Shown piece after piece: positions 1-4,640 of a stretch of DNA of 4,640 nucleotides. The notes beneath the pieces are model-generated. The model did not search any database and was not told the origin of the DNA. It saw only the letters and a program-made list of their open reading frames with translations. The position numbers and the translations under genes were made by a program. The DNA lies in IMG/VR virus record IMGVR_UViG_2541047778_000009. One strand, written 5' to 3'. The number at the start of each line of letters is the position of its first letter. The first letter of the stretch is position 1. The stretch is from a virus. Lineage: Duplodnaviria > Heunggongvirae > Uroviricota > Caudoviricetes.

Positions 1-149
1 AAGGCTGGGCCATACTCCTCCGGCAGAAGCAGAAAAAGCTTATTATGCTTCCATCGGAAACGATGATCTGGCAGCCTGAGTTCACAGATAAAACACTCTC
101 CAGGAAACCCGGGGCGGTTCATCTGGGTACATTAGATGCTTTTTGCTGA
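1..149 (+). pseudogene. Truncated inverted duplicate of the 5' region of the large gene at 3492..4640; frame is open from the window edge, ATG at 45, stop at 147..149
   Basis: Plus-strand translation from the ATG at 45 gives [26 protein letters not shown], identical to the first 26 residues of the minus-strand ORF 3492..4622. It then diverges (LGTLDAFC) and stops exactly after the repeat boundary at 122/123. The frame is also open upstream to position 3. Confidence 0.35.
27..122. repeat. Left arm of a perfect inverted repeat (partner 4545..4640)
   Basis: Manual comparison: the reverse complement of 4545..4640 is identical to 27..122 (96 of 96). Identity breaks at 123 (left) versus 4544 (right). 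The right arm runs to the window edge, so the repeat may extend further; positions 1..26 would then pair with sequence beyond 4640. Confidence 0.9.
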
Positions 150-657
150 CTAGCATATTTACAGCATCACGAAGCGGAGTCCTGTCATCAACAGATGTTT
201 TCTTCCGTGCATTTGCTGCCTCTCCCTTTGTCCAGTAGTCATGCAGCACAGTAAAGCATTCTTCCTGGTACTGAATCAGTTTATCGCGGATGTCAGCACG
301 AACTTTCTCAGGGTTGATGCTGAACAGCCATCCATTTAACTTCTTCAAAGGAAGGCAGAGTAGCTTACGAAGCTTACCATCAGCGGCAACCATGTTCATA
401 TGAACACAGTTGAATTTGCTAATCTGCTTCATGAGTTTTGTTTGCTGCGTTGACCAGCTCATTCCGAGGTTTTCAACGATTGGCTTCATCGCAACATATG
501 CAACTCCGGCAGCCATGGCGGTGATAATTTGCTGACCGTTGAATGGCACGTAAGAGGTGTTCACTGCTTCTAAAATTGCTATACTATTCATGTTGGTTTT
601 TCTCCACGGATTTACCGACAACCGAAGCCCTGACTGTTCCAGCAGTTGGGGCTTCAC
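82..657 (-). CDS. Phage antirepressor-like protein (P22 Ant N-terminal domain-like), possibly C-terminally truncated
   Basis: 191-codon ORF with a GTG start at 657; an alternative ATG at 591 ([21 protein letters not shown]...) lies about 10 nt after a GGAG. The segment FNGQQ...[14 protein letters not shown]...[13 protein letters not shown] resembles phage antirepressor N-terminal domains from memory (not searched). It sits directly downstream of the arc-like gene on the same strand, as ant does in the P22 immI operon. The last ~12 codons and the stop are encoded inside the inverted repeat (85..122). Confidence 0.55.
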
Positions 658-823
658 TGTTTTGATTTCTTTGCCGCATCAAGCATCACTTCTGAAAACG
701 TGCGCTTGCCACTGAATACTCTTTCTCTTCTCAATTTTTCGTTCGTGCCAAATGATTCGCCATGAACAAAATTTGGTCTTAAAATGGTAATCGCAATCTC
801 TTTGACTACTGCATCCAAGCGAA

Positions 824-976
824 TCACACCGTTACCCCCTCTCTCTTCAGGCTGTCTATCAGGCGCTTGATAACCTCTGAGTTAAACGACCTGCACTCTT
901 CCTTTGCCCTGCTACCGATAGCATCCTTTAACGACTGCGGCATCCTTACCAAAATCTTACTTATTTCTTTCTCCAT
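824..976 (-). CDS. arc: Arc-like ribbon-helix-helix transcriptional repressor (50 aa)
   Basis: From the ATG at 976, preceded by GGAGGG 4 nt upstream on the minus strand. The protein MEKEISKILVRMPQSLKDAIGSRAKEECRSFNSEVIKRLIDSLKREGVTV aligns along its length with P22 Arc (FNLRWPREVLDLVRKVAEENGRSVNSEIYQRVMESFKKEG), including the N-terminal beta-strand and the GRSVNSE motif. The ORF-track extension to 1012 begins at a TTG with no ribosome-binding site and is not preferred. Confidence 0.8.
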   Translation of the reverse strand: MEKEISKILVRMPQSLKDAIGSRAKEECRSFNSEVIKRLIDSLKREGVTV

Positions 977-1014
977 GTTACCCTCCACGCAAACAACTCT
1001 TTTCGAATACAAAA

Positions 1015-1067
1015 GATAGCAAAGTGAGTATATCTAGTCAAAATTTTTTTGCATACACTTTGCTATC
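1015..1067. promoter_or_regulatory. Candidate operator: perfect 12-bp inverted repeat arms (GATAGCAAAGTG at 1015..1026, CACTTTGCTATC at 1056..1067) separated by a 29-bp AT-rich spacer, within the divergent arc-like / mnt-like promoter region
   Basis: Arms are exact reverse complements by direct reading. They lie in the 114-bp gap between the divergent starts at 976 (minus) and 1091 (plus), where P22 carries the overlapping Pant/Pmnt promoters and the Arc and Mnt operators. Promoter hexamers were not confidently assigned. Confidence 0.55.
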
Positions 1068-1090
1068 AAATTGAATACCAAAGGTGTTAT

Positions 1091-1339
1091 ATGGCAAAGG
1101 GTGTGTCAATTTCTCCAACTACGGTAAGAATCCCTGAATCTTTACGCGAGGCTCTTGCTGTCAGAGCATCAAAAAATGGTCGCTCTGTTAACTCCGAGAT
1201 CGTCATGATTTTGCAAGCCGCGATTGATGAAGATAGGTCGCCAAAGTCAGTTGAGTCATTTGCTCAGCAAGAAGCTGATAAATTCAAAGAGGCGCTACTT
1301 GAGACGCTAAAGACCATGTATGCTAAGGATGAAAAATAA
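1091..1339 (+). CDS. mnt: Mnt-like ribbon-helix-helix transcriptional repressor (82 aa)
   Basis: From the ATG at 1091, preceded by AAGGTG 4 nt upstream. The protein MAKGVSISPTTVRIPESLREALAVRASKNGRSVNSEIVMILQAAI...FKEALLETLKTMYAKDEK matches P22 Mnt (83 aa) in length, the N-terminal RHH region (FNFRMPMEVREKLKFRAEANGRSMNSELLQIVQDAL) and the C-terminal helix (LKDLYKK). It is divergent from the arc-like gene as in P22. The ORF-track start at 1049 is a TTG extension and is not preferred. Confidence 0.8.
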   Translation: MAKGVSISPTTVRIPESLREALAVRASKNGRSVNSEIVMILQAAIDEDRSPKSVESFAQQEADKFKEALLETLKTMYAKDEK

Positions 1340-1875
1340 TGCTGCACACAATTCATTTCTTATGCCCTGTTAACACTGCCACTGTTGGGCAACTTCAGAA
1401 CCACTGTCTCACCGCATTATCTCAAGGCGCAACTGAATTAAATATCCATATATCAAGTCAGGGAGGGGAAACTGCTGCTGGCTTTACTGCGTATAACTTT
1501 CTTAAGTCACTCCCTGTTACCGTTAGAACTCACAACATAAGCAATGTTGAATCCATAGCTAATATCGTTTTCCTGGCTGGCTCAGAACGTTTCGCAAACC
1601 CATTATCAAGATTCCTGTTACATCCTCTATTATGGTGCTTTGCCTCCCCAGCCGCCGACCATGCCAGATTGAGAGAGTACGGGAAATGCCTCGATAACGA
1701 TCTTGATCGCTTCGTTGAGACGTTCAATATCGACATCGGAACCCATATTAGGTGGGCATCCCTGATAGCAGACTCGACCATTTTGGATGCTAACAAGGCT
1801 CTTGAGCATGGCATAATTAATTCCATAAAAACTGCAAGGCTGGCATCCAATCAGGCAAACTGGTGGGTTGTTTGA
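1339..1875 (+). CDS. ClpP-fold (S14-like) serine peptidase-like protein, 178 aa, translationally coupled to the mnt-like gene
   Basis: The ATG at 1339 overlaps the mnt-like stop (TAATG). Manual alignment to E. coli ClpP: NIHISSQGGETAAGFTAYNFL against [21 protein letters not shown]; a candidate nucleophile Ser72 (codon 1552..1554, context NVESIAN against GQAASMG); His95 (codon 1621..1623, LLHPLL against MIHQPL); a candidate Asp145 or Asp150; and C-terminal ANKALEHGIINSI against APEAVEYGLVDSI. Homology is judged by eye only. Confidence 0.55.
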   Translation: MLHTIHFLCPVNTATVGQLQNHCLTALSQGATELNIHISSQGGETAAGFTAYNFLKSLPVTVRTHNISNVESIANIVFLAGSERFANPLSRFLLHPLLWCFASPAADHARLREYGKCLDNDLDRFVETFNIDIGTHIRWASLIADSTILDANKALEHGIINSIKTARLASNQANWWVV

Positions 1876-1899
1876 TGGGTAAATCATGATTACTCCTTA

Positions 1900-1926
1900 T
1901 AAAAAACCCACCTGACGGTGGGTTTA
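1900..1926. terminator. Bidirectional intrinsic terminator between the convergent genes at 1339..1875 (+) and 1924..2373 (-)
   Basis: Stem ACCCACC (1906..1912), loop TGAC, stem GGTGGGT (1917..1923). On the minus strand the stem is followed by six T (complement of AAAAAA at 1901..1906), a strong terminator for the YafO-like operon. On the plus strand it is followed by TTT only, so it is weaker there. The hairpin overlaps the minus-gene stop at 1924..1926. Confidence 0.7.
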
Positions 1927-2373
1927 GTCAAACATAGTGTTTCTAAAGTCTCTCGCATACCCTGCTAACACTCTCATTCTATTATGATTGTTAGCAGACA
2001 TGTGAGCTACAGGATGAAAAAGAGCAATCAATGAATACCTGTTCTCATCAAAAAGATTTTGTGCATAAACGAGAGCGGTATTGGATGTTTTATGCCACTG
2101 CAACTTTTGCGGTGTGCTGATATCTGTGCCATTTTTTATTGGCTCAAATTTATTTTCACCAATTGCTAAATGAAGGTGCATAAGGCCTGCATCTTCAATA
2201 TCAGGAGGTCGATGATAAGAGGTGTCTCTGCCAAAATAGCTGGGCAACGTTCCCGTAGACTTGTAGATGATAAAATCATCTACAAGTGTTTGTTTTAAAT
2301 CAGGAAACTCAACAAAAACCGGGGAGAAAAAATAGTCAAAACTATCCTGATTATATTCCACGGTTACTTGCAT
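1924..2373 (-). CDS. YafO-family type II toxin-like protein (putative ribosome-dependent mRNA interferase), 149 aa
   Basis: ATG at 2373 with GAGG 6 nt upstream. Motifs DDFIIYKSTGTLPSYFGRD, HLHLAIGEN, ALVYAQNLFDE and LIALFHPVAHMSANNHNRM parallel the E. coli YafO sequence as recalled from memory (DFISYKRDGVLPDIFGRD, HIHLANEN, HLVYCQGAFDE, LLIAILKPEPHKLARDNNQM). It is the second gene of a tightly spaced two-gene operon (8-nt gap). Confidence 0.6.
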   Translation of the reverse strand: MQVTVEYNQDSFDYFFSPVFVEFPDLKQTLVDDFIIYKSTGTLPSYFGRDTSYHRPPDIEDAGLMHLHLAIGENKFEPIKNGTDISTPQKLQWHKTSNTALVYAQNLFDENRYSLIALFHPVAHMSANNHNRMRVLAGYARDFRNTMFD

Positions 2374-2381
2374 GTTTTACC

Positions 2382-2948
2382 TCAGTGGAAGTTACCAGAG
2401 TGAAACACACGAGTCCCGTGCTCAGCAAGCGCACGCAAACCAGCCATATCTACGGAACTATCAAAAACAACCGGAACACATGAGCGTTGTTTAATAAGAC
2501 TATTCAGGTTGGTTACGGCAGATCTGGCATCAGCAACAACGATATAGATATCTCTTGCGATCTCTTTAAAATCAGCAGAAGCTTCTTTGAATACCGATTT
2601 CATTGCCCCTTCAAGTCCTCTCAATTGATGCTCTATCAATCGAGACTTTTCTGGTTCAATGATAGACAACACATTGTCTACATTCTCATCGGTAGCGTTT
2701 GCAAGAACACGATAAGCGTATTTCAGCATTCGAGACAATTCTTTAATCGAAGACACCGCCTCATGAAGCTCATCATTAGCCCGTTCACTGCTGAATGAGG
2801 ATTGATGGTAAGCGTGCTGAACGTTATCAGTAACAACCACCTCACAACTGAACGCAGAAGCTTGCTGTAATAGCAAACCTATTGCGACTCCAGCTTTGGC
2901 AGCGTTCAAGCTAAACATTTCATCAATCCCATTAGTCTCATTGCTCAT
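2382..2948 (-). CDS. Hypothetical protein (188 aa), upstream operon partner of the YafO-like toxin; candidate non-canonical antitoxin
   Basis: ATG at 2948, preceded by a near-perfect Shine-Dalgarno AAGGAGG 5 nt upstream. The ORF-track start at 2978 is a TTG with no ribosome-binding site. Stop TGA at 2384..2382, with the SD of the downstream toxin overlapping it. No family recognised by eye; predicted mostly helical with an acidic central region. It is not YafN/RelB/DinJ-like in size or sequence. Confidence 0.6.
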   Translation of the reverse strand: MSNETNGIDEMFSLNAAKAGVAIGLLLQQASAFSCEVVVTDNVQHAYHQSSFSSERANDELHEAVSSIKELSRMLKYAYRVLANATDENVDNVLSIIEPEKSRLIEHQLRGLEGAMKSVFKEASADFKEIARDIYIVVADARSAVTNLNSLIKQRSCVPVVFDSSVDMAGLRALAEHGTRVFHSGNFH

Positions 2949-3015
2949 ACAAACCTCCTTCTTATCGGAGATTATCAATAGCTATGCATCCATTGAATAC
3001 ACGCTATGCGCAATA

Positions 3016-3044
3016 AGTTTACGTCACGTGATATCATTATGCAA
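3016..3044 (-). promoter_or_regulatory. Candidate sigma70 promoter for the 188-aa/YafO-like operon with an 8-bp palindrome (TCACGTGA, 3024..3031) in the spacer
   Basis: Minus strand reads TTGCAT (complement of 3039..3044), a 17-nt spacer, then TAAACT (complement of 3016..3021). The perfect palindrome TCACGTGA lies in the spacer, and GCTATGC recurs at 2981..2987 and 3003..3009 downstream of it. This matches the layout of an autoregulated toxin-antitoxin promoter but is judged by eye only. Confidence 0.3.
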
Positions 3045-3123
3045 CCACCGTTCTATCACCGACTAACTTTACTCCCACTCCTATACATCATCTGGTATCC
3101 TGCGCAAAACTAAGGAGGTTGGT

Positions 3124-3474
3124 GTGAATGCTCAGTCTGTCATCATGGTTTTCCTTGGGCTGATTGTCGCAAAACTATATCCAGACTGGTGGAAAGGGGC
3201 ATTAGCTACTGTCGCCATCTATTTGCTTTTATCCATCGTTAAGCGATCACTCGCTGAGACCGTAAATCAAGCAAAACGTTTCTCATTTAAGAGTTTAATA
3301 AACTATGTTACTGGGCTTATTTTTTGCCTTTCAATTCTGATCGCTTCGGCTTTTTTGCCCGTATCAATAGCTAATTTTTTTGGCGCACCATATGAGGTAG
3401 GTTATCTATTCTCTGTTTCCTGTCTTGCCATTGCTCTTCTTTACCTGTGGACGAGATCAAAGAATAAAAATTAG
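3124..3474 (+). CDS. Small integral membrane protein (116 aa, about 4 predicted TM helices); candidate superinfection-exclusion (SieA-like) or immunity protein
   Basis: GTG start at 3124 with AGGAGG 5 nt upstream. Hydrophobic stretches: VIMVFLGLIVAKLY, ALATVAIYLLLSIV, LINYVTGLIFCLSILIASAFLPVSIANFFG and VGYLFSVSCLAIALLYLW. It is convergent with the large gene at 3492..4640 and ends 17 bp from its stop. Its position relative to mnt/arc/ant matches sieA in P22. Confidence 0.6.
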   Translation: MNAQSVIMVFLGLIVAKLYPDWWKGALATVAIYLLLSIVKRSLAETVNQAKRFSFKSLINYVTGLIFCLSILIASAFLPVSIANFFGAPYEVGYLFSVSCLAIALLYLWTRSKNKN

Positions 3475-3486
3475 CCATCCGTGGCT
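3473..3486. terminator. Short hairpin between convergent genes (AGCCA-TCCG-TGGCT); possible weak terminator for the minus-strand gene
   Basis: 5-bp stem with a 4-nt loop, read directly. On the minus strand it is followed by AATTTTTATT. The stem is short, so this is a low-confidence call. Confidence 0.25.
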
Positions 3487-3491
3487 GCCAG

Positions 3492-4640
3492 TTATTGAGC
3501 TTCTTTTTGTGATGCCTGTGCGACTCTGGTGAGCGATTGTGTGACCGTACTGATCGCTCTGTCATATGCTGTGCTACCTTTTGGCGTATTTGCCAGACGT
3601 AACAAGGCATTTCGTATAACAGGGCTTTCGTATGCCTTCGCAGCTCCTCCTACGACACCAGCAGCAGGAACAACAAACGCAGCCGTTTTTAGCATCCCCG
3701 CTAATACTGCTGCGTTTATGATGCCACCACCAACTAACAATCCATAAAGCTGCTGACCATTTAAGTTTTGAACGTTCGCTTTTGCCGCGTGTCTTGTATC
3801 GTTGAGGTATTTAATAACGCCGTCCAGTTCCTTTCCATGTACGCCTTTAAAGAAAGTTGCTGATTGCTTCCTGTTCCGGTGTAACGCATTAATAAACTTT
3901 TCAACACTAATATTTCCAGACGGATCAGTCGCCTTATCTACAGCATTCTGAACTATGGCTGCTCGTGCGTTTTGCCTACCATTGTCATCCAGAAGCCTGT
4001 AAAGCTGAGAACGTTCTGATGGGTTTTGGCTAAAAACGAGTTTTGTTACATCCTCAGGTGTAGCCTTGCCGCTGGCTATTGCCTTTTGAACGCGCGTTCT
4101 TCCCATCATGTCATTGAATCTAGCCCATGAGCGATCAACCCTAGACATATTGGCAGCTTCTTCTGAGCCTAGTTTTTGGGATACTGCTTTTTTCATATCC
4201 GCTGTATATGCCTTGTAGACAATATCGCTGGCTTTCTGGAGCGTGTCTTTATCAACAGTCTCGTTTGAATTCATGAACCGCTTTCGAAGGTCAGTTCTGT
4301 TTTCTCTCGCCAGACGCAGGTCATTGGGTCCGCTGGTGATATCGTCTTTAAATTGCTGCAAGACTTTTACCGCGGCTCTATCCTGAGATTTGCCCGGGCG
4401 GCTTAACACGGCAATCTGATTGTCGATAGCTTTTACCGTGTTTGAGAGATCGACAGGGGTATCCCCCATAGCGTCAATTATGCGGTTATATCGCTTTCCT
4501 GCTGCCTCAATGAATTTTTGTTGCCCTTTAGTCGCAGATTCATAATGAACCGCCCCGGGTTTCCTGGAGAGTGTTTTATCTGTGAACTCAGGCTGCCAGA
4601 TCATCGTTTCCGATGGAAGCATAATAAGCTTTTTCTGCTT
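3492..4640 (-). CDS. Large helical, charged protein with a C-terminal hydrophobic Gly/Ala-rich helical hairpin; probably 5'-partial; candidate phage DNA-ejection protein (P22 gp16-like position) or membrane-active toxin
   Basis: ORF track gives 376 aa from the ATG at 4622, but the frame has no stop between 4623 and the window edge (KQKKLI) and no convincing SD precedes the ATG, so the true start may lie outside the window. The hydrophobic segment LYGLLVGGGIINAAVLAGMLKTAAFVVPAAGVVGGAAKAY is encoded around 3630..3750. The first 26 codons after the ATG lie inside the inverted repeat. No family recognised by sequence; the function is inferred from composition and synteny. Confidence 0.7.
   Translation of the reverse strand, partial: KQKKLIMLPSETMIWQPEFTDKTLSRKPGAVHYESATKGQQKFIEAAGKRYNRIIDAMGDTPVDLSNTVKAIDNQIAVLSRPGKSQDRAAVKVLQQFKDDITSGPNDLRLARENRTDLRKRFMNSNETVDKDTLQKASDIVYKAYTADMKKAVSQKLGSEEAANMSRVDRSWARFNDMMGRTRVQKAIASGKATPEDVTKLVFSQNPSERSQLYRLLDDNGRQNARAAIVQNAVDKATDPSGNISVEKFINALHRNRKQSATFFKGVHGKELDGVIKYLNDTRHAAKANVQNLNGQQLYGLLVGGGIINAAVLAGMLKTAAFVVPAAGVVGGAAKAYESPVIRNALLRLANTPKGSTAYDRAISTVTQSLTRVAQASQKEAQ
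4545..4640. repeat. Right arm of the perfect inverted repeat (partner 27..122)
   Basis: See the left arm. Identical over 96 bp in inverted orientation, and it reaches the window edge. Confidence 0.9.

Follow-up and report, generated by a model that had tools for sequence, protein, structure and literature searches.

A YafO-family toxin gene and its dedicated partner gene in prophages: a putative toxin-antitoxin cassette with a candidate new antitoxin family

We report that toxins of a known family, YafO, are paired in prophages with a dedicated family of partner proteins that had gone unrecognised. The window analysed here, a 4640-base stretch of DNA considered at its full length, carries one such pair on its minus strand, with the partner gene (188 aa) upstream of the toxin gene (149 aa). 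The gene structure, the family of the toxin, the lack of any known antitoxin domain in the partner and the strict linkage of the two genes were observed directly. We favour reading the pair, from its sequence and those of its relatives, as a self-contained type II-like toxin-antitoxin cassette carried as prophage cargo (a ‘moron’), with the partner probably representing a new antitoxin family. The pair is not peculiar to this window; it belongs to a conserved, wider family that includes gp17/gp18 of Escherichia phage HK639.

Layout of the cassette and its place in the prophage

The features of the cassette, in window coordinates and in the direction of transcription, are the following.

3016-3044, minus strand: candidate sigma-70 promoter, TTGCAT-17 nt-TAAACT, proposed from comparison with Salmonella
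2952-2973, minus strand: predicted leader hairpin, AAUCUCC/GGAGGUU, from RNA folding
2954-2960, minus strand: partner ribosome-binding site AAGGAGG, 5 nt upstream of the ATG, from the sequence
2382-2948, minus strand: partner gene, 188 aa, ATG at 2948, from the ORF list
2382-2537, minus strand: codons of partner residues ~138-188, the most conserved part, alignable in remote homologues
2374-2384, minus strand: junction TGA-GGTAAAAC, stop codon with overlapping GAGG and 8-nt spacer, from the sequence
1924-2373, minus strand: YafO-like toxin gene, 149 aa, ‘long’ clade, from the ORF list and Pfam
1901-1925, minus strand: intrinsic terminator, stem CCCACC/GGTGGG, loop GTCA, T6 tail

The tight operon described in the earlier note was borne out, from the AAGGAGG of the first gene through the 8-nt gap to the terminator. 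Between the partner stop codon TGA (2382-2384) and the toxin ATG lie the 8 nt GGTAAAAC, and the GAGG of the toxin ribosome-binding site (2380-2383) overlaps the stop codon, a sequence arrangement which suggests translational coupling of partner and toxin. The hairpin CCCACC-GTCA-GGTGGG occupies 1907-1922, with TTTTTT next on the minus strand (1906-1901). The toxin stop codon TAA is overlapped by this terminator, which the cassette shares with the ClpP-like gene converging on it; in phage Emek an identical 36-base stretch carries a terminator annotation, and the stretch was found again in many phages and E. coli genomes. Neither the cassette terminator nor the cassette promoter was listed by an automatic promoter and terminator scan, the terminator and the candidate promoter having been found by eye and by comparison. 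The layout is that of a type II module: two adjacent co-directional genes with a single terminator, the antitoxin slot lying upstream of a known toxin family.

In the Salmonella versions the candidate promoter reads TTGCAG-17-TAGACT, the hexamers and spacing being kept and the spacer sequence being different; a strict consensus promoter scan did not pick up TTGCAT-17-TAAACT. Palindromes and repeats lie upstream of the partner gene. The leader hairpin, which appears alike in the minimum-free-energy and centroid folds (86-nt leader, z = -2.47), may sequester the ribosome-binding site of the partner. HK639-type leaders differ: they contain a palindrome (TTGCUCA-N4-UGAGCAA), a hairpin resembling a terminator, in which some changes are compensatory, and a CUCC/GGAG stem that is invariant and analogous to the hairpin of the window. 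An Rfam search yielded no family matching the leader of the window or the HK639-type leaders.

The window is an exact match to E. coli chromosomes, for example that of strain SCU-116, and adjoins tRNA-Arg and intS within the remnant of a P22-like prophage. An intact prophage in S88, APEC O1 and other strains has window positions 122-4545 (4.4 kb), in the order gp16 ejection-protein gene, 4.4-kb region, ant and tailspike gene. In the window version, ant and gp16 are interrupted by two IS3-family copies in inverted relative orientation, and positions 27-122 and 4545-4640 form a perfect 96-nt inverted repeat. Because the inverted IS copies cut ant and gp16, a 376-aa ORF at 3492-4622 is a hybrid of the IS end and gp16, and a 191-aa ORF at 82-657 is a truncated ant. 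The features around the cassette are as follows.

82-594, minus strand: ant (truncated)
592-658, plus strand: sar antisense RNA (Rfam, 83.9 bits)
654-827, minus strand: 57-aa ORF
824-976, minus strand: arc
1091-1339, plus strand: Mnt-like gene of the Arc family
1339-1875, plus strand: ClpP-like gene, coupled to the Mnt-like gene
3124/3145-3474, plus strand: gene for a 109/116-aa membrane protein, divergent from the cassette
3492-4545, minus strand: gp16 (truncated)

The prophage cargo location proposed in the earlier note was correct, the cassette lying in the immI region of a P22-like prophage. The ‘sieA-like’ label that the same note gave to the neighbouring gene at 3124/3145-3474 finds no backing in the sequence, as this gene had no family match and no tblastn similarity to SieA or any other entry in 50,697 phage records. 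The GC content of the cassette is 0.39-0.43, against 0.45-0.48 in the flanking gp16 and IS DNA; cargo genes are usually AT-rich. A functional link between the cassette and the convergent ClpP-like gene was considered and rejected, given that several phages have the ClpP-like gene without the cassette and that Salmonella has the cassette without the ClpP-like gene.

The toxin and its partner

The downstream protein had been called ‘YafO-like’ from its motifs, and the profile search proposed with that call confirmed it, with a match to Pfam YafO_toxin (PF13957) of 78.9 bits (cut-off 25; E = 3.4e-22) in which residues 37-145 align to model positions 3-101 of 101. This match, many homologues and NCBI annotation of both genes, present in 55 complete E. 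coli genomes, identify the two as real genes and not chance ORFs. The toxin is 38% identical to K-12 YafO across residues 29-144 and keeps Y37, F47, R49, H66, Q92, Y103, P121 and H124, eight residues defined as invariant on a 62-sequence alignment that covers both clades and includes K-12 YafO. Its score against the NCBIfam equivalog PRK09885 was 79 bits, below the cut-off of 153, and the toxin is therefore no orthologue of K-12 YafO; on these sequence comparisons it is a YafO family member in a separate, longer clade. The AF2 model of the toxin is a confident alpha/beta fold (pLDDT 94.7), and no solved structure of the YafO family was found in a PDB sequence search.

The partner is NCBI WP_000064337.1, labelled ‘hypothetical protein’. 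It matched no Pfam or NCBIfam family, and its sole family is PHROG 8416, of unknown function. The earlier note had allowed that the partner might prove to be a known unrelated phage protein; neither this PHROG nor any Pfam, NCBIfam or PADLOC assignment identifies it as one. A search of PADLOC-DB 2.0.0 gave a marginal match to ZorA in a coiled region (E = 0.0039, 14 bits) and no defence-system assignment for the partner, and the toxin was without any match there. No relationship to YafN was detected, either by BLASTP (E = 36) or by hhalign (probability 0.3%), and there was no Pfam match to Phd/YefM (PF02604). The earlier note had placed YafN with the RelB/RHH antitoxins; K-12 YafN is of the Phd/YefM type. 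Matches to Phd, Doc and DUF4065 were likewise lacking in Pfam at E up to 0.1, as were matches of the partner to an RHH or HTH domain in Pfam and NCBIfam at the same threshold, and PDB sequence and profile searches with the partner returned nothing meaningful.

Only 24 partner homologues, of 77-249 aa and mostly 167-190 aa long, were recovered when 1.84 billion representative proteins were searched exhaustively with a profile. A word-indexed search recovered 56 clusters, from Enterobacter, Serratia, Pantoea, Yersinia, Kluyvera and others, all 56 labelled hypothetical. The AF2 model of the partner consists of six long helices with no strand (pLDDT 79.8, and over 90 for residues 61-156; residues 38-53 are disordered), and fold searches with the model returned generic helical bundles alone and no antitoxin. 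The model thus agrees with Pfam and NCBIfam in upholding the claim that the upstream protein is unrecognised and has no RHH or other recognisable DNA-binding N-terminus.

Residues ~138-188 are the sole part of the partner that can be aligned in remote homologues. When the partner profile was compared with remote upstream ORFs by hhalign, the alignment fell mainly on residues 138-181; a match to PHROG 22162 covers residues 139-183, and conservation per block peaks at 101-120 and 171-188. Judging from this conservation, residues ~138-188 may be the toxin-binding module. Both proteins are mildly acidic, with a pI of 5.5 for the partner and 5.7 for the toxin. Two other assignments for the partner were considered and rejected. 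A lipoprotein was rejected, the nearby cysteine being variable among homologues and the preceding residues forming no lipobox, and a membrane span was rejected for the N-terminal hydrophobic helix, the 19-residue hydropathy of which (~1.1, calculated by hand) is below the usual threshold.

Linkage, co-divergence and distribution of the pair

The linkage of partner and toxin held in every evaluable related locus. A YafO gene lies directly downstream of the partner in 35/35 loci fetched by similarity to the window or to the partner. A toxin-based search returned 39 viral loci, 38 of them evaluable, and all 38 have a partner homologue directly upstream, recognised by tblastn in 27 loci, by inspection in one and by hhalign in 10 GC-rich Pseudomonas-type loci, the upstream protein there being 180 aa long and matching the partner profile. 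Long YafO toxins that are more remote (144-148 aa), whose genes adjoin holin or tape-measure genes, also have profile-matching proteins of 179-184 aa upstream, the match again lying mainly over partner residues 138-181. An equivalent pair is found in the Pseudomonas prophage vB_PaeS-D14L, the partner homologue of which is found by tblastn. The 8-nt gap and the junction CAY-TGA-GG are shared by 25 of 26 distinct enterobacterial pairs and by 10/10 Pseudomonas-type loci, and about half of the toxins start with TTG.

The ‘long’ YafO toxins that have a partner homologue upstream are of 144-153 aa and come from Enterobacterales and from GC-rich Pseudomonas-type prophages. The ‘short’ YafO toxins had a 97-aa Phd/YefM antitoxin upstream in 4/4 cases examined (132-134 aa), namely K-12, Klebsiella, a Pectobacteriaceae genome and a metagenome contig. 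As short YafO has Phd/YefM in the same upstream position, the partner occupies the antitoxin slot. From this survey of upstream partners, the YafO family splits in two, into short YafO with a YafN-type antitoxin, which is chromosomal, and long YafO with the helical partner, which is found in prophages.

The pairwise distances among partners are correlated with those among toxins (r = 0.88), a value that 0/2000 permutations reached in a Mantel test. The partner diverges faster than the toxin, with a mean distance of 0.52 against 0.39, and antitoxins usually evolve faster than toxins. A single decayed copy was found, in which the toxin is frameshifted and the partner intact; the reverse was never seen. 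Co-divergence and synteny prove co-inheritance, which is not the same as neutralisation.

The pair occurs in several kinds of prophage and in different positions within them. In E. coli and Salmonella it is found in P22-like immI regions; tape-measure and minor-tail genes flank it in HK639 and in prophages of Enterobacter, the Enterobacter pair standing beside an inserted mnt-arc-ant module. Further copies adjoin holin genes or lie within a myovirus-like baseplate region. These different phage types and positions indicate that the pair moves as a unit. Most relatives of each phage type lack the cassette, and in the window it is intact within an IS-bracketed prophage remnant. In E. coli the pair was present in 55/5426 complete genomes (~1%), always on the chromosome and at least 99% identical; carriers include ST95 ExPEC/APEC strains and the species type strain.

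Interpretation and comparison with known systems

We favour the antitoxin reading because the partner sits in the antitoxin slot, the coupling is invariant, the two families strictly co-occur, the partner evolves faster and decay was of the toxin, this last point resting on one pseudogene. The family-invariant residues of the toxin, its confident alpha/beta model and the survival of an intact cassette in a remnant cut by two IS copies also count for a toxin-antitoxin pair. Counting against it are the well-folded bundle of the partner, with neither a type II DNA-binding domain nor a disordered tail, and the mildly acidic nature of both proteins, unlike the acidic antitoxin and basic toxin of classic type II systems. 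The lack of a PADLOC defence-model assignment for either protein counts against it as well.

We infer toxicity, binding, neutralisation, a trigger and a biological role for the pair along the following lines. The YafO-family toxin would be an mRNA endoribonuclease that stops translation when free, and the 188-aa helical partner would be its dedicated protein antitoxin. With its strong ribosome-binding site and ATG start, the partner would be made first and in excess, and the output of toxin would be lower given the weaker, stop-overlapping ribosome-binding site and, in many relatives, the TTG start. The partner would neutralise the toxin by direct binding, most likely through its conserved C-terminal ~50 residues. 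Phage infection, shut-off of the host or loss of the element might cut the supply of partner or displace it; the toxin would then be freed and would arrest the cell, and the prophage could gain through abortive infection or through its own retention.

The pair is found exclusively at prophage cargo sites, at which genes for exclusion and defence are clustered, and this location also fits a sensor-effector anti-phage system, in which a stably folded partner restrains the YafO RNase until it has bound a specific protein of the infecting phage. The partner is large and confidently folded, and its fast-evolving N-terminal bundle joined to a conserved C-terminal module follows the pattern of a variable sensor with a constant effector-binding part. 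However, neither protein resembles known defence proteins in PADLOC, and an ordinary antitoxin fits the same data; we consider a sensor-effector system unlikely. A broader form of this proposal, which we hold to be similarly doubtful, would make the partner the first of a new class of folded, sensor-type antitoxins, in which the variable N-terminal bundle senses a component of the invading phage and the conserved C-terminal module clamps the YafO RNase, and would make the cassette a prophage abortive-infection system distributed widely across Enterobacterales and Pseudomonas.

The position of the cassette amid late genes in several phages could point to a use by the phage itself, in host mRNA shut-off or lytic regulation, with the partner as a chaperone, activator or specificity factor; the chaperone idea came from the earlier note. 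Such a use is quite improbable, since the cassette comes with a terminator and a candidate promoter of its own, is richer in AT than the flanking DNA in the manner of cargo, is missing from most relatives of each phage type, and is intact in a dead prophage remnant, in which no lytic function can be selected. It is also conceivable that the 188-aa protein has nothing to do with control of the toxin, with either an RNA or a small ORF missed by annotation as the antitoxin, or with an inactive toxin. The toxin is indeed listed as an orphan in published Pseudomonas prophage surveys, which report that of D14L as such (PMC10449497), and conserved RNA hairpins are present upstream of the partner gene in HK639-type leaders. 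Against this, no tandem-repeat RNA or other Rfam family was found in or next to the cassette, the genes, 8 nt apart, have no conserved small ORF between them, the toxin retains its conserved residues, and linkage to the 188-aa family holds without exception in loci that are very divergent, with an invariant overlap, making an unrelated partner very improbable indeed. The toxin-antitoxin cassette thus remains the reading that we prefer.

YafO toxins have been associated with Phd and with partners known by association only (Leplae et al. 2011; PMC3141249), and a 2023 survey of E. coli distinguished six YafO toxin clusters with 13 partner clusters, 8% of them known (PMC10790755). Cluster 70H of that automated survey, which is almost confined to ST95, appears to be the toxin described here (PMC10790755). 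In literature searches that joined YafO with phage, P22, NetFlax, defence, orphan or novel antitoxin, the partner was not the subject of any study. Prophage YafO toxins have thus been called orphans or given ‘unknown’ partners (PMC10449497, PMC10790755), and the long clade has one dedicated partner family. The partner supplies a new candidate antitoxin profile for annotation pipelines and toxin-antitoxin finders. The pair would also be a clean system in which to study how a YafO RNase is inhibited, PDB sequence searches having returned no structure of YafO or of the partner, and it adds a candidate defence or retention cassette to about 1% of complete E. coli genomes. Toxins and antitoxins recombine freely, and a new antitoxin family is therefore an expected kind of discovery and no conceptual surprise.

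Among known systems, YafN-YafO of K-12, a type II pair in the dinB-yafN-yafO-yafP operon, is like the cassette in the family of its toxin (PF13957; 38% identity with the same invariant residues) and in its tightly coupled order, with the gene in the antitoxin slot first and the toxin second. It differs in its antitoxin, YafN being a 97-aa protein of the Phd/YefM type to which the 188-aa helical partner shows no similarity, and in its toxin, that of the cassette belonging to the longer clade (144-153 against 131-134 aa) and falling below the equivalog cut-off. The two genes of the cassette are separated by 8 nt, whereas yafN and yafO of K-12 overlap or almost abut, and the cassette is prophage cargo whereas yafN-yafO belongs to the chromosomal dinB operon.

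The HK639 genes gp17-gp18 (NC_016158) are true homologues, with 38% identity for the partner and 59% for the toxin, and agree with the pair of the window in gene order, in the 8-nt junction and in having a terminator downstream. The HK639 pair differs in that it lies between siphovirus tail genes and has a different leader, and gp17 is annotated as a ‘hypothetical protein’. Type II modules of prophages and plasmids, such as phd-doc of P1, serve retention of the element or abortive infection, and large non-canonical antitoxins such as PanA/DUF4065 have a sizeable folded helical domain. The cassette resembles both in being mobile cargo in which an upstream protein would hold a translation-blocking toxin in check, and differs from both in having no sequence or fold relationship to them.

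An immI-region remnant between IS copies

The 4.4-kb remnant of the P22-like immI (antirepressor) region lies between two IS3-family copies and is composite-transposon-like in structure.

1-122 and 4545-4640: ends of two IS3-family copies that are inverted relative to each other
592-658, + strand: sar, an antisense RNA known from P22 immI (Rfam RF00262; 83.9 bits, E = 6.6e-17)
654-827, - strand: 57-aa ORF between arc and ant (PHROG 17642, function unknown)

The ends of the window form a perfect 96-nt inverted repeat (27-122 and 4545-4640), and the IS3-family copies truncate both ant and the gene for the gp16 ejection protein. The ORFs of 376 and 191 aa are IS/phage hybrids. The copies are absent from intact prophages, such as that of E. 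coli S88. The sar antisense RNA was retained despite the truncation of ant, its target gene. The 57-aa ORF, labeled a hypothetical protein in RefSeq, overlaps both arc and ant by a few bases.

Neighbors of the partner-YafO cassette

1091-1875, + strand: Mnt-like Arc-family repressor gene and ClpP-like gene
L036 (Enterobacter prophage, CP135498.1) 3043-4539: complete mnt-arc-ant (immI-like) module

The Mnt-like gene is translationally coupled through TAATG to the ClpP-like gene, whose 178-aa serine protease product retains plausible Ser and His active-site motifs, as judged by eye. The pair is convergent with the toxin cassette, and one terminator is common to both. The pair is cargo separate from the YafO cassette, since phages phiv205-1, EC.P3, E212 and PhiR12 carry it without the cassette, and Salmonella has other small genes in its place. 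In the lambda-like siphovirus prophage L036, the mnt-arc-ant module forms an insertion that separates the tape-measure gene from the minor-tail genes, with the partner-YafO cassette immediately downstream; thus, in unrelated phage types the toxin cassette tends to travel close to the antirepressor module.

Leader of the HK639-type cassettes

L003 (phage HK639) 4006-4210, - strand: cassette leader, conserved among HK639-type copies

This leader is common to HK639 and the equivalent upstream regions of related loci L005, L008, L021-L024, L027, L029-L033 and L036. A palindrome (TTGCTCA-N4-TGAGCAA) overlaps a -35-like hexamer, the -10 is TATTAA, and a terminator-like hairpin with compensatory changes is followed by a T run. 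GTCAGAGGTGCTCC is invariant, and a CTCC/GGAG stem covers the ribosome-binding site. The leader, which matched no Rfam family, may act by attenuation or as an RNA that binds a protein.

The divergent membrane-protein gene

3124/3145-3474, + strand: predicted multi-pass membrane protein of 109/116 aa

This gene is divergent from the cassette. Its product belongs to no family in Pfam, NCBIfam, PHROG or PADLOC, and tblastn of 50,697 phage records yielded zero matches. In P22, the position it holds in the window is occupied by sieA.
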